A DNA stretch of 64,000 nt, taken from positions 3,330 through 67,329 of the forward strand of contig CALKWM010000009.1 of assembly GCA_938004065.1 (NCBI GenBank), read 5' to 3'. Position 1 is the stretch's first letter. Every line of letters begins with the position of its first letter. Below the pieces are notes generated by a model. That model saw only the letters and a list, made by a program, of their open reading frames with translations, was not told the origin of the DNA and did not search any database. Source of the DNA: an uncultured bacterium. GTDB taxonomy: Bacteria > Patescibacteriota > JAHJAL01. Below are positions 17-54,656 of this stretch, one piece after another. Both the position numbers and the translations under genes were made by a program.

Positions 17-2236
17 GTGACTACATATCCGGGAAACCCCATCAATATTGATGATGATTTTGTCGGATCATTTACTGCAGGTGGAGCCGCTCCAGCGATC
101 ACAGTGATAAGCGTAGCCGGAGATTCAACCGCCCCGTATGTCGATACTACCGATGATGGTTATACATTGGTAGAATACACCACCTCTCCTTTAGCGATTG
201 AATGCCATTGGGATACGATTGACACTGATTATGATACTATGGCAAATACATGTTTGTCAGTTACTCAGTGTGTTTTAAATCTTACTGGTGAAGGCGGTAA
301 AACCATTTATATGCGATGTGATGATGGTGCTGGACATAAAGCAACCACTTCTTATGTGCTAAATTACACAATCCAGGTGGCATCTGGACCACCCCCATCG
401 AGCGGTCCCCCAATTATTCCTCCTCCCACGTGTACACCACTATTGCCGGAAACCCGTGTTTTACCATGTCCCACCGGACAAACTGGTATGATAGTGGAAC
501 GCAGGATATCTTCCTGCCCTGGACCGTTGTGGGGATCATGGTCAATTGTGTCAAATACTTGTACAACCACACCTCCGGTTGAACCACCAGTGGAGCCACC
601 GGTAGAACCACCGGTAACTCCTCCCCCACCCAGTACAGAAATTGTTAAACATTATATTCCAATTATCGGGTGGACATTTCCAAATTCACTGGTAACGACT
701 GAGAACGATATCGATAATCAGTCAAACTACTCCGGTTTGGACGGATTGTTTGAAAGTATGATGCTGTTTCCTGAAAATCTCGGCGATATCGATACCTTGA
801 TTAGATCTTACTTTGCTGATTTGGGTATTCGCACTCGCGATGTCAATATCGCAATCGATCAAGACTCCATAAAACGAGGGGATACCGTCTACGTATTATT
901 GCCACCTACCCTTAAGCTTTCCAGTAGCGAAGTTTATCAAGGTGAGGAGATGAATTTCAAAGGCACGTCAGCCCCCAATATCGAGATAAATATTTATATA
1001 TTCAATGACAACGATTATCGATTATATACGGTTTACTCAGATGACTACGGTTTTTGGCAATATGACTTCCCGGTTGATTTACCAACCGGAGAATATTTCG
1101 TTTATGCGGTTGGTGGTAATCAGTATGGGTACATCAGTATCCCAAGTGAAATGCAAAATTTTTCTATCTATAAACAGATTGTACCGAGTGGGATATCGGA
1201 AGTGATTCCCCTGCAAAGATATCAACAGATACTGGAAAGTGACGATGTTTCAGGGTTGATGGAAAATGTTGCGCAGATTAATTTCTGGTTTGCTTTGAGT
1301 TTGATTGGCCTATCTTTGTTCGGGTTGATTTTTGAGATATTTAGCTTTTTCTTGTTTTTATTTAATAACATTACTTCATGGTTAGGTATGGTACCGGCAC
1401 GCGATCCTTGGGGTGTGGTGTATGATAGCGAAACCAAAGAGCCGGTTGATTTGGCGATAGTACGTTTGTACGAAGCAAAAACGAAAAAATATTTACAAAG
1501 CAAGGTAACGGGCAAAGATGGGCGTTATAGTTTTATCGTCAAAAAAGGCAAATACTTAATTCAGGTTACAAAACATAACTATACATTCCCGGCACAAGGT
1601 AATTTTGGTGAGTATGATGGCCGTTACACCAATCTGTATTTTGGTGGTATTTTTGAAATTGGTGATGATAATGAATCGGTTGATTTGAACATCCCGATTA
1701 CTCCGAAAGAATCAATCAGACAGTCAATTTTGATAGAAAAAAAATACCATATAAAAATGTTTCGATACTATCTCGGTAAATTTTCTTTTCCGGTACTTTT
1801 GATCGGTTTTGTTTTGAGTGTACTGGTAATGATAATGTTTCCCGGGTGGTTAAATGCCTTGGTTACCCTTTCATATGTAGTGGCAATAGTATTTCATTTC
1901 TATAAATCGTCAACTTCGCTAAAGCCATGGGGAATGATCTATGACTCCAGAACAGGCGATCCGGTGCCTATGGCAATCGTGAAAATAATCGAGCCGGAGT
2001 ATGAACGAGTTTTGGAAACCAAACTAACTGATTTTGCCGGCCGATTTTCATTTTTAACCGTACCCGGCAAATACAGAATAGTTGTGGAAAAAGACGGATA
2101 CGAATTCCCCACCAATTCTTGCGAATTGGTGGCAAAAGGCAAAAAGATTGACTGGTATTGCGGACAGAAATTCGAAATCAAAGACATGAAACAATCTTTT
2201 ATTGATTTTGATATACCTATTGATTTAAGAAATTAA
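17..2236 (+). CDS. Membrane protein with a Pro-rich tandem repeat and two carboxypeptidase-regulatory-like (CarbopepD_reg) beta-sandwich domains. The frame is open to the window start, so it may be 5' partial
   Basis: 739-aa ORF starting at GTG at 17 with no upstream stop in frame. Carries a PPVEPPVEPPVEPPVTPPPP repeat and two G(V/M)(V/I)YDSxTxxP(V/I)xxAIV...GxDGRYSF segments typical of CarbopepD_reg. Hydrophobic helices lie mid-protein and before the second repeat. Confidence 0.45.
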   Translation: MTTYPGNPINIDDDFVGSFTAGGAAPAITVISVAGDSTAPYVDTTDDGYTLVEYTTSPLAIECHWDTIDTDYDTMANTCLSVTQCVLNLTGEGGKTIYMRCDDGAGHKATTSYVLNYTIQVASGPPPSSGPPIIPPPTCTPLLPETRVLPCPTGQTGMIVERRISSCPGPLWGSWSIVSNTCTTTPPVEPPVEPPVEPPVTPPPPSTEIVKHYIPIIGWTFPNSLVTTENDIDNQSNYSGLDGLFESMMLFPENLGDIDTLIRSYFADLGIRTRDVNIAIDQDSIKRGDTVYVLLPPTLKLSSSEVYQGEEMNFKGTSAPNIEINIYIFNDNDYRLYTVYSDDYGFWQYDFPVDLPTGEYFVYAVGGNQYGYISIPSEMQNFSIYKQIVPSGISEVIPLQRYQQILESDDVSGLMENVAQINFWFALSLIGLSLFGLIFEIFSFFLFLFNNITSWLGMVPARDPWGVVYDSETKEPVDLAIVRLYEAKTKKYLQSKVTGKDGRYSFIVKKGKYLIQVTKHNYTFPAQGNFGEYDGRYTNLYFGGIFEIGDDNESVDLNIPITPKESIRQSILIEKKYHIKMFRYYLGKFSFPVLLIGFVLSVLVMIMFPGWLNALVTLSYVVAIVFHFYKSSTSLKPWGMIYDSRTGDPVPMAIVKIIEPEYERVLETKLTDFAGRFSFLTVPGKYRIVVEKDGYEFPTNSCELVAKGKKIDWYCGQKFEIKDMKQSFIDFDIPIDLRN

Positions 2237-2239
2237 TGA

Positions 2240-2345
2240 GTTGTGCTAATTAGAAAAACAAAATATGGTTTGGATGGATCCCCGATCAAGAAGCGTTTCA
2301 CTTTCTTGTCGAGGATGACAGATAAAAAAATAAACTAGCACAACT
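2240..2345. repeat. Inverted-repeat element copy with terminal inverted repeats GTTGTGCTA(A/G)TT
   Basis: gttgtgctaattag...ggatggatccccgatc...caagaagcgtttcactttcttg hairpin...tcgaggatgacagataaaaaaataaactagcacaac. The ends are reverse complements of each other. Confidence 0.55.
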
Positions 2346-2395
2346 TATAAATTAAAAAAACATATAATAATTCCCCCTTAAAATAGTAAAGGGGA

Positions 2396-2956
2396 TTATT
2401 TTTCCAGATCAATTTTTGGATGCTGACGTTTAAAGAATAAATTTATCAGATAGATGAAAACAATAGCAATAAGCCAGCCAAATAATGATTCCATAAGAGC
2501 AAAATGTAAAATGTAGGACAGCGTGTTTTCCAGTTGAAAATTTAAATGCAGAAACGTAAATGCACAATTATATACCAGAAATGCAAAGAGAAGATAACTA
2601 AAACTTAAGACGTGAGAAACGTGTCTTTTTTTAATATAGAGAATTACTAAAAATAAAATGATTTGCAACAGACCGATAGCCAAGAAATCATTTGCAGAGT
2701 ATAAAAAATTCAGTAGAATGGTCAAAATCAAGATTATCGCTGATTGAGAAAAAGGCAAAGCATAGGTGCCGGCCACCAGATAAGAAAGGGTCAATGGCAG
2801 AACCATGCTTGAAATATTTATATTATATGGAAAAGCGGTTTGGACAAAAAATAGTATCGGGACGAAAAAATACACTAAAAATATTTTCATAAAAATCTTG
2901 GTAAAAAAATAGGCGGAAAAATATTTTCTCCGCCTTTTTTGATAGTTGATGAACAA
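2396..2956 (-). CDS. Polytopic membrane protein, hypothetical
   Basis: 186-aa ORF that is almost entirely hydrophobic helices. No recognisable motif. Confidence 0.4.
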   Translation of the reverse strand: MFINYQKRRRKYFSAYFFTKIFMKIFLVYFFVPILFFVQTAFPYNINISSMVLPLTLSYLVAGTYALPFSQSAIILILTILLNFLYSANDFLAIGLLQIILFLVILYIKKRHVSHVLSFSYLLFAFLVYNCAFTFLHLNFQLENTLSYILHFALMESLFGWLIAIVFIYLINLFFKRQHPKIDLEK

Positions 2957-4350: not shown

Positions 4351-4674
4351 ATGAAAAAAATCAATTTAAATGTTTTGCTGGCTATCAATTTATTTGTATC
4401 CTGGTTATTGTACCTGTCAAACAATATGAGTTTTTCAGGTTTAAAATGGATAACTTTACTCAGTCTGGCAATTTTTTTGATGAAAAGAACAAAACTCATC
4501 ATCTTGGTTTTGATATTTTTAACACTTTTTTTGCCGATAGTAGCTTATCTTGAGCAGGACTTTTGGATATATTGGGGATATAGTATGTTTATCTTGATGA
4601 TAGTTTTTTGGTTTGGTTTAATGTTTAAATCACATGATAAAGAAGAAATATATCAGGGAAATAGCGGTAAGTAA
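4351..4674 (+). CDS. Small membrane protein, hypothetical
   Basis: 107 aa with three hydrophobic helices. Overlaps the queG start by about 40 nt. Confidence 0.3.
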   Translation: MKKINLNVLLAINLFVSWLLYLSNNMSFSGLKWITLLSLAIFLMKRTKLIILVLIFLTLFLPIVAYLEQDFWIYWGYSMFILMIVFWFGLMFKSHDKEEIYQGNSGK

Positions 4675-5638
4675 TGGTTTTGATTTGTGCGCGGTTATTC
4701 GTCCGGGTTTAGTTGAAGGATTTGATATATTTGCACAATGGTTGCAGGATGGTTGTCATGCCGATATGAAATGGCTGGAAAAAAATTTGGACAAGAGATG
4801 CGATACCAAAATGATAATGGAGGATTGCCAATCAATAATCGTGTTAGGAGTATCGTATTTTAATGGTGATAATATCAATGATGGAAACAACGCGATCATT
4901 GCCCGTTATGCGTGGGGTGATGATTATCATGATGTTTTGCAGAAGAAATTAAAAATAATAATTGAAAAAATAAAAAATATTTATACAAAAAATTCCCCCG
5001 TAGGGGCGATCCCTCGCGGTCGCCCGAATCTCGTTTCCACAAAGGGCGACCGTAAAGGTCGCCCGTACGACCCGAATTCCAATTTCAAATTTTATACCGA
5101 TACCGGACCGATATTGGAGAAAAATTTGGGGGCGATGGCCGGATTGGGTTGGATCGGGAAAAATAGTTTGCTTATCAATCATCAAATCGGTTCGTATTTT
5201 TTTATGGCAACGATTTTCACCAATTTGCAAATAGATGAATTTACCGAAGAAAGTATGGGCGGTTGTGGCACCTGCCGTAAATGTATTGATGCTTGTCCAA
5301 CCGGAGCTATCAGAGAAGATCGCACGATTGATTGCCGGAAATGCATTTCCTATCACACTATCGAAAACAAGGGTCAAATACCGCCGAAGATTAAAGATAA
5401 AATAAACAATCGAATATTCGGTTGTGATATTTGTCAGGAAGTCTGTCCCTGGAATCGGTTTGCCAAACAAACGAGATTGTCGGAATTCGAGACAAAAAAT
5501 AACCGTGATAAATTAACTATGGAACAGATTAGAAATATAGACCGAGAGGAATATCAGCGATTATTTAAAAATTCCGCGGTCAAGCGGGCGAAGTTTGAGG
5601 GTTTGAAGAGGAATGCGGGGGGAGGGACACTATCTTGA
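4634..5638 (+). CDS. queG: tRNA epoxyqueuosine(34) reductase QueG
   Basis: Two ferredoxin-type clusters, CGTCRKCIDACPTGAI and CDICQEVCPWNRF, plus the HTIENKG and WGDDYHDVL regions typical of QueG. Confidence 0.8.
   Translation: MIKKKYIREIAVSNGFDLCAVIRPGLVEGFDIFAQWLQDGCHADMKWLEKNLDKRCDTKMIMEDCQSIIVLGVSYFNGDNINDGNNAIIARYAWGDDYHDVLQKKLKIIIEKIKNIYTKNSPVGAIPRGRPNLVSTKGDRKGRPYDPNSNFKFYTDTGPILEKNLGAMAGLGWIGKNSLLINHQIGSYFFMATIFTNLQIDEFTEESMGGCGTCRKCIDACPTGAIREDRTIDCRKCISYHTIENKGQIPPKIKDKINNRIFGCDICQEVCPWNRFAKQTRLSEFETKNNRDKLTMEQIRNIDREEYQRLFKNSAVKRAKFEGLKRNAGGGTLS
4995..5074. repeat. GC-rich palindromic repeat module inserted in-frame within queG. It belongs to the GTAGGGGC / GGGCGACC..GGTCGCCCGTAC family
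   Basis: cccccgtaggggcgatccctcgcggtcgcccg ... aaagggcgaccgtaaaggtcgcccgtacgacccg. A sharp GC jump in AT-rich coding DNA. It shares GGGCGACC, GGTCGCCCGTAC and GTAGGGGCG strings with 17236-17307 and 61601-61737. Confidence 0.55.
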
Positions 5639-7056: not shown

Positions 7057-7392
7057 TTATGATTCACAACCGAAAAACTTAAAGGTATTAGTTTTGAAAT
7101 CATAATATGGAATACCATTTTCACATTTAAATGTCTGGCATTCAATACCATCTGGCATTGGTGAACATATTTTTTTAGTTTTTGGGTAATAAAAATAAAT
7201 AACTAGCGAGACAAGTAGAAGCAGGAATAATAAAAATTTAGTTTTAATATTGAATTTAAAAAAAATAAAAAACAGAAGGGCTGCCATCAAAATAATAAAT
7301 ATAAAATCAAAGAAAAATACTACTCTTGTAGAAAATAATAAACACGCTAATACAATAAAAACAGTGACTGTAATCCAATTAAATTTAAACAT
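7057..7392 (-). CDS. Small membrane protein with a Cys-rich C-terminus, hypothetical. The start is moved to the second Met
   Basis: The ORF extends to 7425, but its first 11 codons are encoded by the GGATCCCCGATC arm of an intergenic repeat. The second Met begins a typical TM helix, MFKFNWITVTVFIVLACLLF. Confidence 0.35.
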   Translation of the reverse strand: MFKFNWITVTVFIVLACLLFSTRVVFFFDFIFIILMAALLFFIFFKFNIKTKFLLFLLLLVSLVIYFYYPKTKKICSPMPDGIECQTFKCENGIPYYDFKTNTFKFFGCES

Positions 7393-7403
7393 ATGAAATA
7401 ATT

Positions 7404-7490
7404 TTCTGGATCCCCGATCCCGCATTCGCTGGACAAGTTATCGGAACGCGATGACGCTTCCGATTCGAGGATGACAGTATAAAATATTAT
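7404..7490. repeat. Inverted-repeat element copy (GGATCCCCGATC ... TCGAGGATGACAGTATAAAA)
   Basis: ctggatccccgatcccg ... tcggaacgcgatgacgcttccga hairpin ... ttcgaggatgacagtataaaat. It shares a right arm of about 30 nt with copies at 2272, 27423, 40393, 50585, 51838 and 54591. Confidence 0.55.
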
Positions 7491-7519: not shown

Positions 7520-10030
7520 TTATTTAATTACAAAATTTATTATTTTGCCGTTAATATAAATTTCTTTGACAATCTTTTTGCCTTGCAAATATTTGATTAT
7601 ATTTGGGACTTGTTTGGCTAGCGATAAAATTTCTTCTTGACTCAAATCAGTGGCGACGGTCATCTCTCCCCTTCGCACACCATTGATTTGAACGGGAATT
7701 GTGATTAGGTCATTTTGAAATAATTTTTCATCATATTGCGGCCAATTCATCAGGCAAATGGATTTAGAGTGTCCCATTTGTTGCCACAATTCTTCAGCAA
7801 TGTGCGGACAAGCCGGTGATAACAATAAAAGCAGAGCCTCCAAAGTTTGTCGCCAAGCAATTGGATCTTTGGCGATAGGTAGTTCTTTTTGAAAAGCAAT
7901 AAGGTCGTTGGTAAAAATCATCAGGTGCGAAATAACCGTATTGAACGACATTTTTTCATACTCACCACTGATTTTTTTAATTGCTTTGTTGACCCGCACC
8001 GCCAGTTGTGTCTCGGCAATTTCGCCGGCGTCATACAACCATTGCTCGGGGGTTTCTAGGATAACATCGTTGGCGATGATGATATCCTGGGCTAAATTCC
8101 ATACTTTGTATAGCCAGCGATTTACACCTTTGATGCCATTGGTATCCCAAATAGCGGTATCCGGATAAGGAGCGATAAACATTTCATAGGCCCGTAGAGT
8201 GTCAGCACCGTACTGTTTGATGATGTCATCAGGATTGATAACATTTCCTCTGGATTTAGACATTTTGATGCCACCCTCACCCAATATGTAACCATGGGAA
8301 ATCCTCTTTTTGAACGGTTCATTGGTAGGGACCAAACCTTGATCAAAGAGAAATTTGTGCCAGAAACGCGAATATAATAAGTGTAATGTAGTGTGTTCCA
8401 TTCCCCCGTTGTAGAGATCAACCGGTGTCCAGTATTGCAGATTTTTTTTGGAAGCAAATTCAGTATCATTGTGCGGGTCGGTAAATCGTAGCCAATACCA
8501 ACTGGAACCGGCCCATTGAGGCATGGTGTTGGTTTCCCGTTTGGCCGCGCCACCGCATTGCGGGCAGGTGGTATTAACCCAGTCGGCGATGTTAGCGAGC
8601 GGTGATTCACCGGTGGCGGTCGGACTATAATTTGGTACTTCGGGAAGTTCGAGTGGAAGCTGGTCTTCGGGTAATGGAACCTCACCGCACTTTTCACAAT
8701 AAACGATCGGAATTGGTTCACCCCAATATCGCTGGCGGGAAAAAACCCAGTCATTGAGTTGATAGTTGATAGTTTTTTCTCCCATTTTATTTTGCGCCAG
8801 TTTGGCAGTAATTTTTTCGATTGCTTCCGTGCAGGATAAATTATCGAACTCGCCGGAATTGATTAAAAACCCATTAGCTATATCGGTAAATGCTTCTTTG
8901 GATAAATCTAACTCTTTTTCTCGGCTATCGATGACCTGAGTTATGGGCAGATCAAATTTGCGGGCAAATTCAAAGTCACGCTGGTCGTGAGCCGGAACGG
9001 CCATGATGGCGCCCGTACCATAATCGGACAAAACATAATCAGCCACCCAGATCGGAATTTCCTGATTGTTGATTGGATTGATAGCATAGGCACCGGTAAA
9101 GACACCGGTTTTGTCTTTGTTTTCCTTTCTTTCGATATTGCTTTTGTTTAGTGCTTTTTGTATGTATTCTTGAACTTGTACTTTTTGTTCTTGGCTAACG
9201 ATTTTTTGGATTGACTCATGTTCCGGGGCCAATGCCAAAAATGTGGCACCAAACAATGTGTCCGGTCTAGTGGTAAATACCGAGATTGGATGAGATTTGT
9301 CCGCCGAGTCGGCGGATGTAACTTGAAACTTAACAGAGGATCCCTCACTGCGTCCGATCCAATTGATCTGCATCGCTTTGACTTTTTCCGGATAATCGGC
9401 ATCATGCAAATCATCAATCAAACGATCGGCATAGGCAGTGATGCGCAACATCCATTGTTCCATTTCTTTTTTGGTAGTGACGGCACCGCAACGGTCGCAT
9501 TTACCATCCACCACTTCCTCATTGGCCAATCCCACCATACACGAAGGACACCAATTGATTAAACTTTTTTGACGGTAAGCCAATCCATTTTTATATAATT
9601 GTAAAAATATCCATTGTGTCCAACGGAAGTATTTGGGATCAGTTGTGTCAATTTCTCTATCCCAATCAATGCTTAGCCCCAGACTTTTGACCTGCCGGCG
9701 ATAATTTTTGATATTTTCAGCGGTTTTTTGAGCGGGGTGAGTACCGGTTTTGATAGCATAGTTTTCAGCCGGCAAACCAAAAGCGTCCCAGCCGGTCGGA
9801 AATATCACATTTTTTCCCTGCATACGTTTGATACGGGCGATAGCATCCATAGCCGAGTCGGCGCGACAGTGGCCGACATGAAGTCCTTCGCCTGACGGAT
9901 AAGGGAATTCAAATAAAATGAAATATTTTTCTCTATTTTTATCATTGTCCAAGGCAGTAAAGATTTTCTCTTGCTCCCAAACAGATTGCCATTTGGGCTC
10001 GATTTGCAAGTGATTATATTCTTTTTTCAT
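7520..10030 (-). CDS. leuS: Leucyl-tRNA synthetase
   Basis: 836 aa with the HIGH motif (PYPSGEGLHVGH), KMSKS, a CP1 editing domain and zinc-binding cysteines. Bacterial-type LeuRS. Confidence 0.95.
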   Translation of the reverse strand: MKKEYNHLQIEPKWQSVWEQEKIFTALDNDKNREKYFILFEFPYPSGEGLHVGHCRADSAMDAIARIKRMQGKNVIFPTGWDAFGLPAENYAIKTGTHPAQKTAENIKNYRRQVKSLGLSIDWDREIDTTDPKYFRWTQWIFLQLYKNGLAYRQKSLINWCPSCMVGLANEEVVDGKCDRCGAVTTKKEMEQWMLRITAYADRLIDDLHDADYPEKVKAMQINWIGRSEGSSVKFQVTSADSADKSHPISVFTTRPDTLFGATFLALAPEHESIQKIVSQEQKVQVQEYIQKALNKSNIERKENKDKTGVFTGAYAINPINNQEIPIWVADYVLSDYGTGAIMAVPAHDQRDFEFARKFDLPITQVIDSREKELDLSKEAFTDIANGFLINSGEFDNLSCTEAIEKITAKLAQNKMGEKTINYQLNDWVFSRQRYWGEPIPIVYCEKCGEVPLPEDQLPLELPEVPNYSPTATGESPLANIADWVNTTCPQCGGAAKRETNTMPQWAGSSWYWLRFTDPHNDTEFASKKNLQYWTPVDLYNGGMEHTTLHLLYSRFWHKFLFDQGLVPTNEPFKKRISHGYILGEGGIKMSKSRGNVINPDDIIKQYGADTLRAYEMFIAPYPDTAIWDTNGIKGVNRWLYKVWNLAQDIIIANDVILETPEQWLYDAGEIAETQLAVRVNKAIKKISGEYEKMSFNTVISHLMIFTNDLIAFQKELPIAKDPIAWRQTLEALLLLLSPACPHIAEELWQQMGHSKSICLMNWPQYDEKLFQNDLITIPVQINGVRRGEMTVATDLSQEEILSLAKQVPNIIKYLQGKKIVKEIYINGKIINFVIK

Positions 10031-12032: not shown

Positions 12033-12782
12033 TTAATATCCTTCCAGGACTTCCTCAACGCTTTCCACAAATTTCAATGGTTGCGGACAAATGTTTTCTG
12101 ACAAAACCATATCGTCAAATAACAAATATTTGCCACTGAAAAAAACTTCTTCTCTGGTCGCCCAGAAATTTTCCTGATCCAAAGTTCGCTCAATCAATGT
12201 TCCCTGCGGGTTTAGAGTATGGAAAATATAGAAAATCACATCTTGAACAAAAACTCCCGATTTACGAAAACGTAATTTGTGATAAATTTCTTCCAGTATC
12301 AAATTTTGTGCGGACAATCCTGTTTCTTCGTACAATTCTCGCCTGGCTGCATCCTCGATTGTTTCTCCAAATCTTACTTTTCCGCCAAGTTTACCGACAT
12401 AGTTCAGATAAGGTTGTTTGAGTCGCCGATACAACAAGTGCTCGATCTGTCCGTCCGGGTTTTGGCGGATAGCGTGAATGAGGACGGAGGTTTTGGGTTG
12501 CCGTTCAACCAGATCAACGTTATCATCCAACAGGTTGACGTAATCTTTGCCTTTGTCGGTCAATGAATACTGACCGTTTTTTGACACCAGATTGAGAGCG
12601 AGGAGTTTTTTCAAGTGATAATTCATGTGTTCACTGGCTAGTCCCTCTACCAATAGATCATTAAAACGGAGGGATTTGGAGTGGGAAAATTTTTTAAGGA
12701 TTTGTTTTTGAATCGAGTGGAGTTTAGGGTTGTTTGGGTCCATAGTTTGTTTTTTAAAAAAAATCATGATAAATACTTTCAA
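12033..12782 (-). CDS. NUDIX hydrolase with an N-terminal winged-helix (MarR/ArsR-like) domain
   Basis: Nudix box GGKVRFGETIEDAARRELYEETGL. The N-terminal ~80 aa are HTH-like (LNLVSKNGQYSLTDKGKDY). The true start may be the downstream Met at about 12743. Confidence 0.65.
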   Translation of the reverse strand: MKVFIMIFFKKQTMDPNNPKLHSIQKQILKKFSHSKSLRFNDLLVEGLASEHMNYHLKKLLALNLVSKNGQYSLTDKGKDYVNLLDDNVDLVERQPKTSVLIHAIRQNPDGQIEHLLYRRLKQPYLNYVGKLGGKVRFGETIEDAARRELYEETGLSAQNLILEEIYHKLRFRKSGVFVQDVIFYIFHTLNPQGTLIERTLDQENFWATREEVFFSGKYLLFDDMVLSENICPQPLKFVESVEEVLEGY

Positions 12783-17227: not shown

Positions 17228-17235
17228 GTTTTTTT

Positions 17236-17307
17236 AGGGCGACCGCCCACCCAAGGCGGGCAGGCAAGGGTCGCCCGTACATGTAGGGGCGGACCCGTGT
17301 GTCCGCC
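17236..17307. repeat. GC-rich palindromic repeat cluster downstream of ileS
   Basis: agggcgaccgcccacccaaggcgggcaggcaagggtcgcccgtacatgtaggggcggacccgtgtgtccgcc. Contains several hairpins. Shares modules with 4995-5074, 23431-23521, 54607-54634, 59234-59345 and 61601-61737. Confidence 0.55.
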
Positions 17308-17401
17308 TTTCTTGCATTGGGAAATAATTTTCGTTAAGATTTAAAAGAGTGTTTTTCGATTTTTAAAAATTAATTTTAAAAAAGAAAGGAGAAATAATGA
17401 A

Positions 17402-22079: not shown

Positions 22080-22439
22080 AAGAAGAAAATAAAATATTTT
22101 AAGAAATGTTATCGCTGAAATTGAAGTGATCCGCTGATTCAGTGGAGAGCGCTCAATTATCAGGGGTCTAATTTGCAATATCAAAATTATCGTTTTAAAA
22201 ATTTTCTAACCGGAATATTCTAATATGTTCCGGTTTTGTAAACTATAGCAAATGATGTTATGAAAATGGTTAAATGGCTAAATTGTTGTATGTTTACAAT
22301 TTTAAATTGGAGATTGGAAATTAATTACATATTGGATATTGATTATTGGATATTGATACTTCCATATTGATCACCCGATTGAAATCCTCCATCTGATTGG
22401 GTTATAATTTATTATGTTACTATTTAAATATTTTTAACC

Positions 22440-23323: not shown

Positions 23324-23433
23324 TTTGGAAAGAAATATGCGCCCAAGGCGCACCCGCCTATTGGCGGGAGAAGTAAGAATTAAGAAGTAAGTAATAAGAA
23401 AAACCCGTTTGATTCGGGTTTTGCTGTTTGTAG

Positions 23434-25059: not shown

Positions 25060-25123
25060 TTATTGTAAGTTTATTGTTTGGAAAGTTTGATATGTTTGAT
25101 TAAAGTTTGAACAAGTTTGTCTC

Positions 25124-27128: not shown

Positions 27129-27332
27129 ATGAAAATGGGAATTTTGGGTTGGGTGGCATTTGTTTTGGTGATTGTGGGAGCGCTCAATTGGGGCTTGGTA
27201 GGCATTGCCAGCTTTGATTTGGTGGCAGCGATATTTGGTGATATGTCTTTGATCGCCAGAGTAGTTTACAGTCTGGTAGGTTTGTCGGCAATTTATATGG
27301 TAATCGTTGCACTGACGAAGTCCGGCGAGTAA
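27129..27332 (+). CDS. DUF378-family small membrane protein
   Basis: 67 aa. LGWVAFVLVIVGALNWGLVGIASFDLVAAIFG...VVYSLVGLSAIY matches the DUF378 consensus. Confidence 0.75.
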   Translation: MKMGILGWVAFVLVIVGALNWGLVGIASFDLVAAIFGDMSLIARVVYSLVGLSAIYMVIVALTKSGE

Positions 27333-27422
27333 AAAATTTGTTTTTCCTGGAAAAAGAAAATGAGGCAGATCCCTGCTTCATTTTTTTAATATTTTGATTA
27401 CGTATTTATGAGTAGTGCTAAT

Positions 27423-27500
27423 ATATGTGGCCCCTAGCGTCCGGATTACCGGGCTTATGCTCGAGGATGACAGATAAGAAAAATAACTGGCACCTCATTT
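27423..27500. repeat. Inverted-repeat element copy (…TCGAGGATGACAGATAAGAAAAATAACTGGCACC)
   Basis: Left gagtagtgctaatat... and right ...aataactggcacctc form terminal inverted repeats. Internal hairpin ccggattaccgg. Lies between convergent genes. Confidence 0.5.
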
Positions 27501-27504
27501 TTCA

Positions 27505-27897
27505 TTATTCTTTTTCTTTGTCGGAAAGTATATCGATTTGATTGTGCAGATTGTCAATCTCGATCTTTTTGGTAGTATCTTTCACCTTTTTATCATTTTC
27601 ATATAATATGTTGTTGATGTCTTTGATGCGGGTGATAATATCTTTTAAATTTTCCTCGCTCAGCTGGTCTTCATTTTTTAGAAAAACTTTTTGAGCTTCT
27701 TCGAAGTTTTTTTCAAAACTTTCTTGCTTGTCAATATAGACTTCAATGTTCTTTACCAATTCTTCTTCAGTAGCGGAATTTATCTCCACCAAAAGCGCGT
27801 TGGCGTTGGCCAGCAGGTCGATAATTGTTTGTGAAATTGAAGGCATTTTGGTATTTGATAATGAATAATTATTAAAATTGTTAAATGATTGATTCAA
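27505..27897 (-). CDS. Hypothetical coiled-coil protein
   Basis: 130-aa ORF, acidic and helical. Its start abuts the stop of the upstream ORF. Confidence 0.3.
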   Translation of the reverse strand: MNQSFNNFNNYSLSNTKMPSISQTIIDLLANANALLVEINSATEEELVKNIEVYIDKQESFEKNFEEAQKVFLKNEDQLSEENLKDIITRIKDINNILYENDKKVKDTTKKIEIDNLHNQIDILSDKEKE

Positions 27898-28824: not shown

Positions 28825-28930
28825 TATTTAAACTTATAAAACGTATCAAACTAGGGCAAACATATCAAACATTATATAATCTTTAATTAGAAAATCTATT
28901 GTGTTTGACAAATTTTGATATTAGATAAGT

Positions 28931-29890
28931 TTGATAAGTTTAATTAAAACAATGCTAAATAAATCAAAAATTAGAGTAATCTTCATGGGCACTCCGGAGT
29001 TTGCGGTTGAATCACTCATGGCTTTGAAAGATGATGACTACCGGATCGTCGGTGTTTTTACCGCGCCCGATCGGCCGGCCGGCCGTGGGCGCGAAACCAA
29101 GATATCGGCAGTGAAACGTCTTTCATTGGCTTTCAATATGCCTACGAACCAGCCGGAAAAAATCAGAGATAAAAAATGGGTGCACACTATCAAAAAGTTA
29201 AAGCCCGACTTAATCGTTGTCGCCGCTTATGGACAGATTGTCCCGCAGTCAATTCTCGACATCCCAAAGTATGGCTGTATCAATGTTCATGCTTCAATTT
29301 TGCCAAAATACCGTGGGGCTTCCCCTATTCATTTCGCATTATTGCATGGGGAAAAAGAAACCGGAGTAACGATCATGAAAATGGACGCCGGAATGGATAC
29401 GGGAGAGATAATATCCAGTTGTCAGGTATCAATTTTAAAACAGGACAATCTACAATCTTTGCATGACAAATTGGCGGTGGCGGGAGCGGAATTACTCCTG
29501 GAAACTTTGCCCAAATATATTGAAAAAGAAATCATGCCCGCAATCCAAGATGAGGATAAGGCAACATATACTAAAATTCTGAAAAAATCCGATGGACAGA
29601 TCGACTGGAAACGGAGTGCCGAGGAAATTCATGATCAAGTGCGAGCTTTTTGTCCCTGGCCGGGAACTTTTACCCAATGGGGTGAAAAGTGCATCAAGAT
29701 CGTGGAAACAAAAATTTCCGACAAGAAGCTTGAAGCCGGTAAATTTGAGATAATTGACAACAATCTGTATGTCGGGACCGAAACGAGTGCGCTGGAGATT
29801 GTCAGGTTACAGTTGGAGGGTCGTAAATGTTTATTGGCACAAGATTTTATCCAGGGTTGCAGTATGATTGACGGGTATTATTGTAAGTAA
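28931..29890 (+). CDS. fmt: Methionyl-tRNA formyltransferase
   Basis: IRVIFMGTPEFAVESL, NVHASILPKYRGASPI, and a C-terminal Formyl_trans_C domain. Confidence 0.92.
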   Translation: MISLIKTMLNKSKIRVIFMGTPEFAVESLMALKDDDYRIVGVFTAPDRPAGRGRETKISAVKRLSLAFNMPTNQPEKIRDKKWVHTIKKLKPDLIVVAAYGQIVPQSILDIPKYGCINVHASILPKYRGASPIHFALLHGEKETGVTIMKMDAGMDTGEIISSCQVSILKQDNLQSLHDKLAVAGAELLLETLPKYIEKEIMPAIQDEDKATYTKILKKSDGQIDWKRSAEEIHDQVRAFCPWPGTFTQWGEKCIKIVETKISDKKLEAGKFEIIDNNLYVGTETSALEIVRLQLEGRKCLLAQDFIQGCSMIDGYYCK

Positions 29891-34380: not shown

Positions 34381-35274
34381 ATGAGTTACGCAATTACTAT
34401 CGATGGGCCGGCCGGCAGTGGCAAATCAACTTTGGCAAAAAATTTACAAAAAAAATTAAATGGTTTCGTTCTGGTTGATACTGGCGCTTATTACCGTTGG
34501 GCTACGTATTTGTGTCTGGAAAATGGCACTGATTTAAAAAGTCGGCAAAAGGTTTATAGTCAGGTTAAAGACAAAATGGAATTGATATTTCTGCCATACC
34601 CCAAAGGCCACCGTTATTACTCAGCAAAAATTTTGCACAATGGTGAAGTGATTAACAAGAAAATACACGGTGCAAAAGTTACGCAGAACGTTCCAATAGT
34701 GGCTCAATATAAAAAAGTTCGTGATTTGGTAAAGAAGAAAATCATATCTTTGTCAAAAACATACAATCTGGTAGTGGCGGGAAGAGATATTGGCACTTCG
34801 GTTTTACCAGATGCGGAAATTAAAATTTTCTTGAATCCCTCCATTGACTCCCGAGCTCGCCGTCGTTATCGAGATCAAGTAAAACAGGGCCGAGCGATTT
34901 CGTATGGAAAAATGAAAGAAGAAATGAATGTACGAGATGAACATGATAGAAATAGAGAGCATGGGCCATTGCAAAAGCCCCTTGATGCATTTGAGATTGA
35001 TAACACCTATCTAACCACTTCCCAATGCCTGGCGGAAACTATCAAACATATTCAAAAAACCAAACCGCAAATTTTGAAATTGGAGAAAGTGGATTGGACC
35101 AAATTTGAGAAAGATTTAAAACCCGCGACTGGTTATTTTGCAACTTCTACACAATATTCCGCGCCCAAAATAGTACCGACGGAATCGATGGCTGAATTGA
35201 AGAAAAGATTGAAAGCAAAGTATAAGTCAGAACAAAATGGAGGAGGTGCTGAGAGTTTTTTTAGAAAACACTAA
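34381..35274 (+). CDS. cmk: Cytidylate kinase paralogue 1 (with a C-terminal extension of about 80 aa)
   Basis: ITIDGPAGSGKSTLAKNL P-loop, GAYYRW, VVAGRDIGTSVLPDAEIKIFL, RARRRY, VRDEHDRNRE..PL. Confidence 0.8.
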   Translation: MSYAITIDGPAGSGKSTLAKNLQKKLNGFVLVDTGAYYRWATYLCLENGTDLKSRQKVYSQVKDKMELIFLPYPKGHRYYSAKILHNGEVINKKIHGAKVTQNVPIVAQYKKVRDLVKKKIISLSKTYNLVVAGRDIGTSVLPDAEIKIFLNPSIDSRARRRYRDQVKQGRAISYGKMKEEMNVRDEHDRNREHGPLQKPLDAFEIDNTYLTTSQCLAETIKHIQKTKPQILKLEKVDWTKFEKDLKPATGYFATSTQYSAPKIVPTESMAELKKRLKAKYKSEQNGGGAESFFRKH

Positions 35275-35376: not shown

Positions 35377-36060
35377 ATGAAGATAGTAATCACTATTGAT
35401 GGGCCGTCGGGAAGCGGAAAATCGACGCTGGCAAAAAATCTTTCTCGAAATTTGCCAAATTTTACTCTGGTGGATTCGGGATCGTATTTTCGCTGGGTTA
35501 CTTATCTGTGTTTAAAAGATAACGTTGATTTATATAACCGCCGAGAGGTCTATAATCACGTAAAAGAAAAACTGGATTTGGATTTTTCCGATAACAAAAA
35601 AACAGATGAAATGGTAGTTAAATACGATAAAAAAAAGATTAATGACTTTATATTTACGACAAACATTTCTAGGCAGGTATCGGAGCCGGCGCAAAATTAT
35701 CTACTGAGAAAATTGATTAGAAAAAAATTACGAAAATTGGCTGAAAAATGTAACGTGGTACTGGCCGGACGCGATACCGGTAGCTATACTTTTCCCGATG
35801 CCGGTTTAAAAATATTTTTAACCGCAGATATCGAAAAACGGGCCAAACGTCGATTTGATGAGTTAAAGAAAACAGGCAGAGAGGTTGATTTCGAAGAAGT
35901 TTTGTATCAGATGAAAGCACGCGATCGACGCGATCTGGAAGAAAAAGACAGTCCCCTGGTAAAACCAAGAGGAGCGGTGTTGATTGATAATTCCAATCTA
36001 ACCTGTAAACAAACGTTGGAAAAAGTATTGGCGATTTTGAAAAAGAAGAAAATAGCATAA
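35377..36060 (+). CDS. cmk: Cytidylate kinase paralogue 2
   Basis: ITIDGPSGSGKSTLAKNL, GSYFRW, VLAGRDTGSYTFPDAGLKIFL, RAKRRF, ARDRRD. It is about 40% identical to the upstream copy. Confidence 0.8.
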   Translation: MKIVITIDGPSGSGKSTLAKNLSRNLPNFTLVDSGSYFRWVTYLCLKDNVDLYNRREVYNHVKEKLDLDFSDNKKTDEMVVKYDKKKINDFIFTTNISRQVSEPAQNYLLRKLIRKKLRKLAEKCNVVLAGRDTGSYTFPDAGLKIFLTADIEKRAKRRFDELKKTGREVDFEEVLYQMKARDRRDLEEKDSPLVKPRGAVLIDNSNLTCKQTLEKVLAILKKKKIA

Positions 36061-36167
36061 CAATTGAAGGGTAAGGTAAAAAAATAGTATTATGTAGGAG
36101 TAAGCCGTAAGCGATAAGCAATATGCAATATGCAAAAATGGTTTTGATATCGCCTAAAATCATTATT

Positions 36168-36212
36168 TGAATATTGGATATTGATTATTGATTATTGAAT
36201 ATTGATAAAATG
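36168..36212. promoter_or_regulatory. AT-rich direct repeats (AATATTGGATATTGATTATTG) overlapping the secA start region
   Basis: gaatattggatattgattattgattattgaatattgataaa. The same 21-mer occurs at 22330-22350 upstream of gene 22440. Confidence 0.35.
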
Positions 36213-40328: not shown

Positions 40329-40392
40329 ATAATTTTATAAAAATATTTTTATTGCTATATATTCATATTAGTGAGTAGTACGAATTAAAAAT

Positions 40393-40440
40393 AAGAAATA
40401 TGATGAGGATGACAGATGAGAGAATTAAATAGCACTACTT
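40393..40440. repeat. Inverted-repeat element copy (ATGAGGATGACAGATGAGAGAATTAAATAGCACTACTT)
   Basis: Has the right-arm consensus. The left end is gtgagtagtacgaatt. Confidence 0.45.
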
Positions 40441-40504
40441 ATATATTAGCAAATTTTTTTAGCTATATATTTTTTTTCTTAAAAATAATTTTGTGCGATT
40501 TTCT

Positions 40505-50167: not shown

Positions 50168-50248
50168 AAATAAACTTTGTAAACTTTAAACAAATGTAGC
50201 CAAACTTACCAAACTTTAATCACACAAGTTTGATATGTTTGAAATTTG

Positions 50249-50557
50249 CTAAGTTTGATAATTTTTTTTATTTATTTCCAACATCTCATCGAAATTATCC
50301 TCCAGTTCGGATTTATTTTTCTTTTTGTGTCCACATTTCACGCATTCGTGAGTGATTGCATACTCATCTTTTTTCTTTTCCACCCAAACCGGTTTCATGA
50401 GACCACCGCAATTTGCTTCCCTATCACCCGGATTGACGTCAACATGCTTGGAGTATAAACAAAACGGGCAATGGTTGGTGTAACCGTTGCCTTGGACAAA
50501 TTGGCCACAATTTTCACAAATAAAATCTTCGATTTGTCGTTGGAATTTTTTGGACAT
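50249..50557 (-). CDS. RNHCP-domain protein
   Basis: FICENCGQFVQGNGYTNHCPFCLYSKH...THECVKCGH matches PF12647 (RNHCP). The start is moved to MSKKFQRQ because the longer ORF's first 17 codons are encoded by the adjacent inverted-repeat element. Confidence 0.6.
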   Translation of the reverse strand: MSKKFQRQIEDFICENCGQFVQGNGYTNHCPFCLYSKHVDVNPGDREANCGGLMKPVWVEKKKDEYAITHECVKCGHKKKNKSELEDNFDEMLEINKKNYQT

Positions 50558-50584: not shown

Positions 50585-50700
50585 TCTCATCGATCCCGAT
50601 ATTAACATTCACAAAAATTTATAATCGGGATGGCAGATGCTATCGTTCCTCGCTTTTGACTCCAAAAATGATAGATTAGAGAAATAATTAGTGCTATTCA
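50585..50700. repeat. Inverted-repeat element copy (ATCGATCCCGAT ... ATCGGGATGGCAGATG ... AATAATTAGTGCTATTC)
   Basis: Inverted arms atcccgat/atcgggat. The right-arm consensus is degenerated by transitions. Confidence 0.45.
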
Positions 50701-51837: not shown

Positions 51838-51903
51838 ATCCTGAATCGCTCGAAACGCTCGTAAAACTCGCTTTCGGGTTCAGGATGACAAAATAACTTC
51901 CTC
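51838..51903. repeat. Partial inverted-repeat element copy overlapping the 3' end of the Clp ATPase gene
   Basis: agatcctgaatcgc...gggttcaggatgacaaaataacttcc. The GGATGACAAAATAA part encodes the last codons (VILSS*) of 51880-54552. Confidence 0.4.
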
Positions 51904-54552
51904 CTCCCCCACTATCTGCATATGCATACCTTCTTTTAATTCACCGGACAGCATTTTGTCGGCGACGACGTTTTTGACCTTGTCTTGGAGAGTGCGGTAG
52001 AGGGCACGGGCCCCGAATTCGGCATTGTAACCCTCGGCGATAAACTGATCCATGGCACTATCGGCAACATCGATGGTGATTTTTTTGTCAGCGAGAGATT
52101 TGTTAATTTTGCCAATCATGATTTGGGCAATTTGTTTGATCTCGTCCGTAGTTAGAGGTTTGAACATGATCACACCATCAAAGCGGTTTAAAAATTCCGG
52201 GCGATAGTAGTTTTTTAATTCTTCCATCAATCGGCTTTCGATCTGTTCAACCGGTAAATTATTTTTGACACCTTCTTGGATGTTGATGGCACCAGCGTTG
52301 GATGTGGCGATAATGATAGCATTATTGAATTTTACTTCCCGCCCCATGCTGTCTTTGATTTTACCCTCATCTAAAACTTGGAGAAACAAGTTTAGAATGT
52401 CCGGATGGGCTTTTTCCAATTCGTCCAACAATACCACGGTAAATGGATTTCTTTTGACGGATTCGGTCAGATACCCCCTCTCTTCGAATTCAGCGCTACC
52501 GGGAGGGGCGCCGATGATTTTTTTGATATCGCCTTTTTCCTGGTATTCACTCATATCGAGACGAACCATGTTGTTCTCATCGGCAAAGTATTCATGCGCC
52601 AAAGCTTTGGTTAATTCCGTTTTGCCGACGCCGGTGGGACCGACAAATAGAAACGAGGCGATCGGTTTGGATTTGTCTTTCAAGCCGGCGCGGGCACGTT
52701 TGATGGCGTCGGCAACTTGTTTAACAGCGATATCCTGCCCGATAACTCGTTTATGTAATTCCGTCTCCAGGTTCAACAATTTGGTAGATTCTGCACCGGT
52801 AACTTGTTCGAGAGGAATATTGGTTTTTTCCTGCATCAGAGCCACAACATCGGCTTTGGTGAGATAAAATCTGTTTTGATTTTTCACGGTTATGGCACAT
52901 TCCTGCAAAACATCGAGGGCTTTACCGGGCAATTTACGATCGGCGATAAAGTCAGCCGAGAGTTCGACAGCGGATTTGACAGCCGGCAGTGTAACCAACA
53001 CATCGGACGAGTTTTCCACGCGATAGGAAATTGATTTGATAACTTCGATTGATTGCGGGATATCCATTTCGTCGATTTCGATCTTGGTCATTTCCGAGAT
53101 GAGTTGTTCATAAGTGGAGATATATTTGGAATATCCTTCGATCGTAGTGGAACCGATAAATTGGATATTGTATTGATTTAAGGTTTCGGTCAAGATACTG
53201 ATGATATCCATGGCGCCGCCGGATGAGGTACGAACGCCGGCCAAGAGATGAAGATCGTCGATAAAGAGGATAATGTTGCCGGCGGAAATGACTTCGTTTA
53301 GTGCTCCCATAAAGTAACGCTCTCCCCCCTGCCCGCCGGAAAATATCTGATTGATGTTTAAGGCAATCAATCTTTTGTCTTTGAGTCGGTCAGGGACGTC
53401 TTCGGCGACCATTTTGTAAGCCAAGCCGTTGACGATAGTGGCTTTACCGACGCCGGCTTCGCCTACCAAGATTAAATTGTTTTGATTCGCTTTTTCGAGA
53501 ATATTGAAAGCGTTAGTGAGCTCTTTGTCTCGTCCGATCAATCTTTCCAAACGTTCGTATTTGGCAAACAAGGTTAAATCCCGACCAAAACTATCCAGAA
53601 TCGGAGTTGGGATAGCTGTCCAAGCACGATTCATGTGTCCTTCCGGCTTGAAGCGAGACACTTCTCGGTAGCGATGAATTTTGGCAATTTGTTGATTGAT
53701 ATTTTCTTGCCAGGTACAAATTTCCAAAATATTTTCGAGACTGATCTTGTACTCGGCAAAAGCATTGGCAATTTCCGGATGAATTTTAACAATCGCTTCG
53801 AGAATATGGTTGAAAGAAACTTTTTCGGAATGGTTATCGGAAGCAATCAGATAGGCACTGATCAATATCCGTTCTATTGTACCGGGAACAAAATTGGTTT
53901 GACTGCTGATTGAATTTTCAATAATATATCTTGTAAATTCTTGAAAATCATTGGGACTGACTTCCATTTTAACAATCAGCCAGTTAAACTCATTGCTGTT
54001 TAACAGCTCATCAAAAAATACCCATTGATTGGGGGCGAGGTGGTATTGGGCGGATTTAATGTAGGTATTATTGATAATTCCGACTAGTTCATCATCAAAT
54101 GACTTGGAGATATCGATATTTTCTTGAGTCAAGTTGTCGGAATCGGAGGAAATATGGTGAATTGGTGGTTTTTTCGGTTCTTGATAAAAGTTGATAAAAG
54201 AAGCAACCAGAAGCGTTCCCAATAGTATCCACCAAATCAGGGGGAGCGGAGCGGAGTAAATAAAAACACCCAGAACGGACTGGTCGTTGGACATGTAGTA
54301 CAAGGCGGACAGAACAAAAATCAATATTACGAGAGTTAGGTTGAGAAAGAAAATCGCTTTTTTAACCAAATTGAAAGTACGAATTGTATCCGGGCCGGTG
54401 ATTTTGGCCGGATTTGTCGGCAGTCCCCAAAACAATTTGGTGGAACCAATCTGGCCATAGAATTTCGCCCCATGACAAGAGGGACAGGCGGGGTTTTCGG
54501 ACGCTTGACAGTCGGGACAGGGAGTAATTTGTAATTGGTCAAATTTAGTCAT
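51880..54552 (-). CDS. ClpC/ClpA-like two-NBD AAA+ unfoldase with an N-terminal Cys4 zinc ribbon and two predicted TM helices (membrane-anchored)
   Basis: 890 aa. CPDCQASENPACPSCHG, then TM helices AIFFLNLTLVILIFVLSALYY and LPLIWWILLGTLLVASFINFY. NBD1 Walker A GEAGVGKAT and Walker B IILFIDDLH. NBD2 Walker A GPTGVGKTELTKALA and Walker B VVLLDELEKAH. Sensor/Arg fingers and a C-terminal ClpB_D2-small domain. Confidence 0.85.
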   Translation of the reverse strand: MTKFDQLQITPCPDCQASENPACPSCHGAKFYGQIGSTKLFWGLPTNPAKITGPDTIRTFNLVKKAIFFLNLTLVILIFVLSALYYMSNDQSVLGVFIYSAPLPLIWWILLGTLLVASFINFYQEPKKPPIHHISSDSDNLTQENIDISKSFDDELVGIINNTYIKSAQYHLAPNQWVFFDELLNSNEFNWLIVKMEVSPNDFQEFTRYIIENSISSQTNFVPGTIERILISAYLIASDNHSEKVSFNHILEAIVKIHPEIANAFAEYKISLENILEICTWQENINQQIAKIHRYREVSRFKPEGHMNRAWTAIPTPILDSFGRDLTLFAKYERLERLIGRDKELTNAFNILEKANQNNLILVGEAGVGKATIVNGLAYKMVAEDVPDRLKDKRLIALNINQIFSGGQGGERYFMGALNEVISAGNIILFIDDLHLLAGVRTSSGGAMDIISILTETLNQYNIQFIGSTTIEGYSKYISTYEQLISEMTKIEIDEMDIPQSIEVIKSISYRVENSSDVLVTLPAVKSAVELSADFIADRKLPGKALDVLQECAITVKNQNRFYLTKADVVALMQEKTNIPLEQVTGAESTKLLNLETELHKRVIGQDIAVKQVADAIKRARAGLKDKSKPIASFLFVGPTGVGKTELTKALAHEYFADENNMVRLDMSEYQEKGDIKKIIGAPPGSAEFEERGYLTESVKRNPFTVVLLDELEKAHPDILNLFLQVLDEGKIKDSMGREVKFNNAIIIATSNAGAINIQEGVKNNLPVEQIESRLMEELKNYYRPEFLNRFDGVIMFKPLTTDEIKQIAQIMIGKINKSLADKKITIDVADSAMDQFIAEGYNAEFGARALYRTLQDKVKNVVADKMLSGELKEGMHMQIVGEEEVILSS

Positions 54553-54590: not shown

Positions 54591-54656
54591 GCTGTCATCT
54601 TCGATCTGCCTTGTCTGCCCGCCTTGGGTGGGGGTGGAATCGGGGATGACAGAAAA
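54591..54656. repeat. Inverted-repeat element copy with a GC-rich core (GCTGTCATCTTCGATC ... GAATCGGGGATGACAGAAAAG)
   Basis: Near-perfect inverted arms ctgtcatc..cgat / atcg..gatgacag. The core ctgcccgccttgggtggg is the reverse complement of the module at 17245-17262. Confidence 0.55.

Follow-up and report, generated by a model that had tools for sequence, protein, structure and literature searches.

GTCAT-headed hairpin repeats in a Patescibacteria-like genome: a probable large-looped variant of the Neisseria Transformation Sequence and related motifs

A 64,000-nt stretch of contig CALKWM010000009.1 from a Patescibacteria-like bacterium (the window) carries a family of short inverted repeats dispersed among its genes, and these repeats raise the question of what kind of element they are. 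An initial annotation described them as similar to miniature inverted-repeat transposable elements (MITEs). We propose instead, with a probability of roughly 0.6, that they are a variant, large-looped and in part composite, of the GTCAT hairpin repeats, a group containing the Neisseria Transformation Sequence (NTS)/dRS3 and the Ssn-related motifs (SRM), and are not classical MITEs. The NTS (CGTCATTCCCGCGMAVGCGGGAATCYRG, with arms CGTCATTCCCGCG..CGCGGGAATCYRG) encompasses dRS3; it and the broader SRM are hairpin repeats that are bound and cut solely as single-stranded DNA (ssDNA), and on one strand only, by SsnA, a 94-amino acid (aa) single-domain GIY-YIG nuclease (cd10448) (Chenal et al. 2025, Nat Commun, PMC11893778).

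The existence of the family, and the positions at which it had been annotated, were borne out by counts far over expectation. Where 0.29 exact matches to the core GGATGACAG were expected, the window has five, all of them on the + strand, and none of 100 shuffles reached five; TCGAGGATGACAGATAA, allowing up to three mismatches, gave six matches against 0.11 expected. Flanks L010 and L011 (about 17 kb of the same contig) were taken from GCA_036848155.1 contig DAIUKQ010000001.1, which encodes a 100%-identical LeuS and of which the window is the reverse of positions 65851-129850. They lengthened the sequence read to 81,183 bp and brought the family to nine copies, seven in the window (A to G) and two in the flanks (H and I), a density of about one copy per ~9 kb (Table 1). 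Where seven full copies and one partial copy had been listed, the family of seven sites stood, but only A, C, and D have both the full ~33-nt right arm and the outer ..T[AG]GCAC arm. In B and F the common part is limited to the 13-nt core TCGRGGATGACAG, each with a left arm, and E (GGATGGCAG) and G (GGATGACAA) have diverged; the supposed separate core-only copy at 54607-54634 lies inside F, which had therefore been counted twice. The interiors are mostly unrelated between copies, except for two subfamilies that are alike, A with I and B with H.

Table 1. Copies of the repeat, and a GIY-YIG gene of the window, with their positions (window coordinates unless flank L011 is named)
Feature	Position	Strand	Structure
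Copy A, composite	2238..2346	-	Outer 13-bp inverted repeat ATGAGTTGTGCTA / TAGCACAACTTAT (also given as ATGAGTWGTGCTA / TAGCACWACTYAT) around GTCAT hairpin core 2276-2321; core on minus strand CTGTCATCCTCGAC-(20-nt hairpin)-GATCGGGGATCC
Copy B, hairpin core only	7404..7481	-	Minus strand CTGTCATCCTCGA-(45-nt two-hairpin interior)-TCGGGGATCCAG
Copy C, composite	27408..27497	-	Outer arms GAGTAGTGCTAAT / AACTGGCACCTC; GTCAT half intact (TCGAGGATGACAG on +), other half degenerate (GGCCCCTAG)
Copy D, half element	40371..40441	-	Outer arms and right arm GAGGATGACAGATGAGAGAATTAAATAGCAC; no left arm, no hairpin
Copy E, diverged	50585..50700	-	Core 50589-50636, GATCCCGAT-(23 nt)-ATCGGGATGGCAG; then 36-nt insert and outer-arm-like AATTAGTGCTATTC
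Copy G, diverged	51838..51892	-	Minus strand TTGTCATCCTGAA-(33 nt)-TTCAGGATCTAG
Copy F, two-headed	54591..54653	.	CTGTCATCTTCGAT-(33-nt GC-rich hairpin)-ATCGGGGATGACAG
Copy H	L011 24-132	as window copies	B-like interior
Copy I	L011 272-328	inverted	A-like interior
Single-domain GIY-YIG gene, 83 aa	25124..25375	+	PF01541 E = 6e-20

The hairpin itself is best read on the minus strand, where the consensus is (C)TGTCAT-CCTCGA-(variable hairpin of about 21-77 nt)-TCGGGG-ATC-CAG. A conserved hairpin base thus encloses a free interior in every copy except D, to which an internal hairpin had also been ascribed and which has neither hairpin nor left arm; elsewhere the left arm matched the reverse complement of the right arm imperfectly, as annotated. 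The hairpin is asymmetric in its arms, with CTG-G-ATCC facing GGAT-GA-CAG. This arrangement is the NTS frame: the minus strands of B (CTGTCATCCTCGA..TCGGGGATCCAG) and A (CTGTCATCCTCGAC..GATCGGGGATCCAT) contain, as the NTS does, GTC, AT.CC..GG.AT, C, and CAG/TAG. Like the NTS and SRM, the window copies have a 5' (C/T)GTCAT head, a stem that opens AT(T/C)CC and closes GG(A/G)AT, and, in some of them, a C (CAG/TAG) after the palindrome, and are oriented asymmetric elements with many dispersed copies and a loop free to vary. With SsnA, the three bases before the palindrome weigh most for cleavage and the C after it most for binding, whereas the identity of the loop does not matter and the enzyme accepts extensions at its position in vitro (Chenal et al. 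2025); the variable natural interiors of the copies fit this tolerance. The head on the GTCAT strand is TGTCAT in A, B, C, D, F, G, H, and I and GCCAT in E. A C stands directly 3' of the palindrome in A, B, E, G, and H, and also in 16 of 18 GC-rich GTCAT hairpins in three other loci described below (L007, L068, and L090); the three 5' nucleotides and the 3' C are both present in A, B, G, and H, E having only the latter.

In the diverged copies, the helix is preserved by two-sided changes, both in G (ATCCTGAA/TTCAGGAT), where the differences of the stem from A and B compensate for one another, and in E (ATCCCGAT/ATCGGGAT). The minus strand has T.G as its fifth stem pair, where the plus strand has C.A, and because of this difference the GTCAT strand folds better in A, B, H, and I. 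When folded as ssDNA with DNA parameters, the GTCAT strand and the other strand gave -9.0 and -7.2 kcal/mol, respectively, for A, -18.0 and -15.2 for B, -24.8 and -21.0 for H, and -8.2 and -5.2 for I. In copy F both strands carry a GTCAT head, and owing to G.T wobbles the + strand has the more stable fold. The single orientation claimed for the family thus held for the window, where all copies are on the + strand by their core, with the qualification that F is effectively two-headed; just outside the window, H keeps this orientation and I is inverted.

The same frame occurs in other bacteria. A two-arm scan with the pattern CCCCGAYC-N18-48-TCGAGGATGACAG gave 77 matches in 75 loci, 40 of which extend to the full frame (ct)GGAT-CCCCGATC..G-TCGAGGATGACAG. 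The frame, GGATCCCCGATC..GTCGAGGATGACAG, is present in at least 40 places, across taxa that include five Patescibacteria groups. About 30 matches correspond to the number expected by chance; they lack the frame extension and fall either within long open reading frames (ORFs) of high-GC genomes or in a single conserved gene of Paenibacillus. The extended matches came from Nitrospirales (19), Peribacteria (7), Peregrinibacteria (4), Proteobacteria (4), Parcubacteria (2), Saccharibacteria (2), the Patescibacteria group (1), and Desulfomonilaceae (1), and their interiors are unrelated; one locus (L027) has a minimal 27-nt unit, GGATCCCCGATCAGGTCGAGGATGACA, and sister hairpins such as GTCATTCCCGCGAAAGCGGGAATC adjoin the extended matches. 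Hence the frame is widespread across phyla, and the possibility allowed for in the initial annotation, that the motif would be found only at these loci with no such structure elsewhere, did not hold. The long right arm, GAGGATGACAGATN{5,11}WAAMTRGCAC, had no matches in genome and metagenome contig collections that both lacked the source genome. In the Nitrospirales (L014, L018, L031, L032, L070, and others) we observed a nested or tandem form of the element, repeated near-identically many times per chromosome, in which three CTGGATCC half-sites face three GTCG(G/A)GGAC/GATGACAG half-sites.

Compensatory variation was also seen between genomes. The closest relative by LeuS, L007 (GCA_035399985.1), carries a compensatory variant, GTCATACCCGA..TCGGGTATC, in four near-identical copies (TGTCATACCCGA-29 nt-TCGGGTATCTCAT) with the stem pair ATACCCGA/TCGGGTAT, a situation that parallels NTSvar, CGTCATACTCGGG-N5-CCCGAGTATC (Chenal et al. 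2025). Two further loci, L068 from Saccharibacteria and L090, a Saccharibacteria contig from a metagenome, contain the sister variants ATCCCTGG/CCAGGGAT, ATTCCCGC/GCGGGAAT, and ATCCTCGCG/TGCGGGGAT. All of these variants with compensatory stems retain GTC-AT..AT-C. At the syntenic loci of relatives L002-L006 (65% LeuS identity), neither GGATGACAG nor a GTCAT hairpin was found. The spacer that holds copy A measures 160 bp here and 50-73 bp at the syntenic sites of relatives, so that the copy looks like a lineage-specific gain. At extended coordinates 70820-70849 (L011 ~2730-2759) there is in addition a perfect 11-bp GTCAT-headed hairpin, GTCATGAGGGGAAA-gtttg-TTTCCCCTCAT, which may be unrelated because it has neither the ATCC/GGAT stem nor the 3' C.

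The ssn genes are typically flanked by repeats (Chenal et al. 2025), and an arrangement of this kind was found in the candidate phyla radiation (CPR). In L068, five to six GTCAT hairpins, one of them with the frame of the window copies, lie within ~430 bp directly upstream of a gene whose 178-aa product has a C-terminal GIY-YIG domain; L090 has a 76%-identical homologue with the same hairpin-array arrangement. Thus GTCAT hairpin arrays adjoin a GIY-YIG gene in two CPR contigs, and we conclude that a hairpin-GIY-YIG link exists in CPR. A profile hidden Markov model search for GIY-YIG in all 75 element-bearing loci detected it in L068 alone. For the hairpins of the window, the only nuclease candidate seen there is the 83-aa single-domain GIY-YIG protein of Table 1, a putative candidate for the cognate enzyme. 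On this protein NCBIfam gave only a weak, sub-threshold match to a group I intron endonuclease.

Several observations weigh against assigning the repeats to the NTS/SRM group. The published search pattern, HGTCWYN(0-2)YYVSBRHN(0-5)WNVSBRGN(0-2)RNCYNB, which describes a short-looped motif of ~28 nt in total (Chenal et al. 2025), had no matches in the 81 kb with loops of 5, 30, or 90 nt, the null for this test being a first-order Markov simulation and not a true dinucleotide shuffle. The pattern missed the copies because their stems have T/A where V/B is required and their loops are far beyond N(0-5); the stem CCTCGA/TCGGGG falls outside the regular expression, and the loops are 21-77 nt and often hairpins themselves, compared with 3-5 nt in NTS/SRM. 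The window copies are therefore outside the published SRM motif yet inside the SRM architecture. The extra outer inverted repeat carried by three copies (A, C, and D) is not accounted for by the NTS model, and copies C, D, F, and I have an absent or degenerate 3' C or lack one arm. The placement of the window copies relative to genes, taken up below, counts on the same side. As to the enzyme, no cd10448-type gene was identified within the 81 kb read, and the best Protein Data Bank (PDB) matches of the 83-aa protein are UPF0213 proteins (BH0048, EF2693), making it UPF0213/YhbQ-like and not demonstrably of the cd10448 Ssn clade. Its gene is not flanked by copies; the nearest, C, is 2 kb off, a distance expected by chance at the density of the family. 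Neither GTCAT hairpins in the neighbourhoods of two homologues of the 83-aa protein nor pairwise similarity of this protein to the Saccharibacteria GIY-YIG protein could be detected. Finally, the sequence read is 81 kb of a genome of ~1000 kb, to which both copy count and partner search are limited, and the host is Patescibacteria-like, a group not discussed by Chenal et al. (2025). The best relatives of its proteins bear the labels 'Patescibacteria group bacterium' or simply 'bacterium', so that it is probably CPR-like. Literature searches found nothing useful on palindromic elements in CPR or on the 9-mer, and no follow-up publication to Chenal et al. 2025 on Ssn.

If the repeats are nevertheless GTCAT hairpins of the NTS/SRM kind, the functional unit would be the base of a DNA hairpin on the minus strand of the window, consisting of a 5' GTC, a stem from AT(C/T)CC.. 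to ..GG(G/A)AT, a C directly 3', and 4 to ~80 nt at the loop position. Such a hairpin would form when the GTCAT strand becomes single-stranded, as in incoming transforming DNA or in replication and repair intermediates (by extension from Chenal et al. 2025). For the present genome, we infer a partner nuclease, the place of the cut, and a function of the repeats by analogy with SsnA, which cuts a few nucleotides 5' of its motif (Chenal et al. 2025): a small Ssn-type GIY-YIG ssDNA endonuclease would bind the hairpin and nick a few nucleotides 5' of GTCAT. The nick would then fall in the conserved T-rich tract of the minus strand, that is, the A-rich tract following GGATGACAG on the + strand, a position that could account for the conservation of the A-rich right arm in copies A, C, and D. 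By this means the repeats might mark or restrict ssDNA and so shape recombination. Seven of the nine copies have one orientation on a stretch whose GC skew is uniformly positive, and in these seven the GTCAT strand would be the leading-strand template; this bias, in the one region available, fits avoidance of self-cleavage on the lagging-strand template.

The strongest alternative is that the repeats are MITEs in the strict sense, non-autonomous DNA transposons moved by cut-and-paste through terminal inverted repeats, either the outer GAGTWGTGCTA.. or the inner CTGTCATCC/GGATGACAG, by a transposase encoded elsewhere. MITEs are recognized by target-site duplications, whole-length similarity, and a cognate transposase. 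Like MITEs such as Correia/NEMIS and RUP, the present repeats are small, non-coding-looking, dispersed, and bounded by inverted repeats, the outer 10-13-bp ones noted in the initial annotation being found in A, C, and D, and the subfamilies A with I and B with H suggest copying. Copy A, moreover, makes up the ~110 bp by which its spacer exceeds those of relatives. The diagnostic features themselves were not seen: the sequences flanking the outer arms of A, C, and D share nothing beyond AT-richness and show no consistent target-site duplication, the interiors differ, the outer arms are missing from B, F, G, and H, and no transposase was present among the genes of the 81 kb, which are housekeeping genes. 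The inner arms are asymmetric, imperfect, and common to several phyla with free interiors, their frame equals that of NTS/SRM, and copies can be translated in frame. What stood of the MITE-like description is thus a dispersed family of inverted-repeat hairpins, and we regard transposition as MITEs as an improbable account of it.

Mobilization on ssDNA by a different enzyme seems still harder to uphold. In this case the repeats would be repetitive extragenic palindromes (REP/REPIN type) mobilized as ssDNA hairpins by a REP-associated tyrosine transposase (RAYT), an IS200/IS605-like Y1 transposase. The design is alike, in that the REP/REPIN-RAYT systems of Proteobacteria are short hairpins with a conserved single-stranded head, recognized at the ssDNA level and thought to be domesticated-transposon systems; strand bias, intergenic clustering, and the orientation of seven of nine copies along the positive GC-skew stretch are in keeping with this, as is the presence in the same genome of a second, more REP-like GC-rich family, GGGCGACC..GGTCGCCCGTAC. 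The head, however, is GTCAT and not GT[AG]G (GTAG in REP/REPIN-RAYT), no gene called or scanned in the 81 kb encodes a RAYT or other Y1 transposase, the one enzyme demonstrated biochemically to act on GTCAT-type hairpins is a GIY-YIG nuclease rather than an HUH Y1 transposase, and the gene adjoining the arrays in L068 and L090 likewise encodes GIY-YIG and not Y1. We consider this origin very unlikely.

The GC-rich family just mentioned is unrelated to the GTCAT repeats and lies, in a 38%-GC genome, at 4992-5074, 17232-17315, 23337-23371, and 61590-61740, the last an array of four to five hairpins. It takes the forms (CAAG)GGGCGACC-loop-GGTCGCCCGTAC and GGGGCGGAC-loop-GTCCGCCCGTAC, and GGGCGACC..GGTCGCCC occurred twice against 0.00 expected. 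At 4992-5074, two inverted hairpins (-44.8 kcal/mol for 114 nt) stand in frame inside QueG, ORF 4634-5638(+), at a variable linker which has non-palindromic inserts in L002 and L004 and none in L007. The interior of copy F at 54610-54633 and the GC-rich hairpin after ileS at 17246-17269, on the opposite strand, are identical at 23 of 24 nt; hairpin modules seem to have been exchanged between the two families.

Equally doubtful is an element acting as RNA, either a small RNA or a hairpin in the 3'-untranslated region by which the mRNA of the upstream minus-strand gene would be stabilized or terminated. Each of the seven window copies follows a minus-strand gene at a distance of 0-77 nt, in sense orientation, a pattern that was overlooked when their orientation was said to be independent of the flanking gene strand. 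Copy A begins 2 nt past the stop of ORF 17-2236(+) and 50 nt past that of gene 2396-2806(-), B lies between leuS (7520-10030 -) and ORF 7057-7393(-) with an interior common to H, and C lies between the convergent genes 27129-27332(+) and 27505-27897(-). The better-folding strand is moreover the mRNA sense, and hairpins of the REP type protect 3' ends. It is only because of this gene-sense placement that the RNA reading stays alive. Against it, no U-tract follows the hairpin, the interiors are not conserved, no + strand gene of the window is followed by a copy in the opposite orientation, and two copies facing opposite ways, H and I, are translated within a single ORF. RNA is not bound by SsnA (Chenal et al. 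2025). Rfam, consultation of which the initial annotation had proposed, identified no known RNA family: only tRNA-Leu passed the gathering threshold, and at E<=1 no match overlapped any copy. The statement that the repeats are not intrinsic terminators was confirmed, there being no U-tract on either strand; clustered regularly interspaced short palindromic repeats (CRISPR) were set aside since the repeats are not tandem, integron attC sites since the copies are scattered among housekeeping genes, and a diversity-generating retroelement was rejected from the sequence.

Contrary to the earlier view that the repeats have no coding capacity, some copies are part of genes. The partial copy said to overlap a stop codon is G, whose stem supplies the TGA (51880-51882) of a ClpB-like gene, ORF 51880-54552(-). 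Copies H and I lie, ~7.5-9.6 kb past the right end of the window, in an ORF of 846 aa (L011 1-2098 -) for a two-domain glycosyltransferase, which has no stops in the read-through; they have opposite orientations and both are in frame, with the predicted peptides CHPRGESGALLGRG. Copy H is an insert behind the conserved ..AEKLI helix. Copy I is an insertion in the interdomain linker which an alignment of homologues (~380 aa) shows to be missing from six of eight; the other two, from other organisms, carry at this position separate inserts derived from GTCAT, ACHPRVESSA (P0241) and SLCHSE (P0244). The PDB alignment of the glycosyltransferase halts at the element. As most of the real copies in other genomes are intergenic, in-frame insertion was dropped as a general rule. 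The in-frame copies are comparable with the Rickettsia palindromic elements (RPEs), which are likewise palindromic, occur between genes and in frame within protein genes, and add a peptide at permissive sites. The RPEs, however, reportedly form whole-length sequence families of 100-150 bp. Rickettsia is among the genomes with >300 SRMs (Chenal et al. 2025).

These observations could be combined into a more specific form of the GTCAT hairpin reading, which we offer tentatively and think rather unlikely as a whole. The Patescibacteria-like repeats would be modular, with a nuclease-recognized stem base carrying arbitrary 20-80-nt 'cargo' hairpins, wrapped in a second inverted repeat, and inserting in frame in protein linkers as CHPRGES-type peptides. 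The enzyme acting on them might belong to a GIY-YIG clade other than cd10448, of the UPF0213-like 83-aa type or the 178-aa Saccharibacteria type.

Other features were recorded in the window and its relatives. AT-rich, tandem-like motifs, GTTTGAT(A/T)nGTTTGAT and ATTGGATATTGA, occur near gene starts at 25067-25104, 28911-28948, 50229-50270, 22320-22370, and 36162-36198, where they possibly serve as promoters or binding sites. In L007, the hairpin copies are flanked by similar runs, CAATATCCAAT. Tandem cytidylate kinase genes (34381-35274 and 35377-36060) lie side by side and share one direct repeat that is 81% identical over 52 nt. In the closest relatives, L007-L009, LeuS has 981 aa with a NUDIX domain (P0002); in the window, LeuS has 836 aa (7520-10030) and a separate NUDIX gene lies nearby at 12033-12782. 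The flanks contain two 100-N runs, masked stretches or assembly gaps, at extended coordinates -3248..-3149 and 70987..71086.

The Ssn/NTS system has been known only since 2025, mostly from Proteobacteria. The identical recognition frame is now found in a CPR-like genome, in Nitrospirales, and in several Patescibacteria classes, with natural loop extensions that mirror the engineered ones tolerated by the enzyme in vitro and with copies tolerated within coding sequences. Annotators should treat a peptide like CHPRGES, or VEDDR where the other strand is read, as repeat-derived. If the modular form proposed above is correct, the Ssn/hairpin ssDNA system would also include naturally competent episymbionts that scavenge DNA, and one exact recognition frame would seem to have spread horizontally between phyla. 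These repeats and the GIY-YIG proteins thus provide concrete substrates and candidate enzymes for a possible ssDNA restriction or marking in ultra-small bacteria that depend on DNA uptake.

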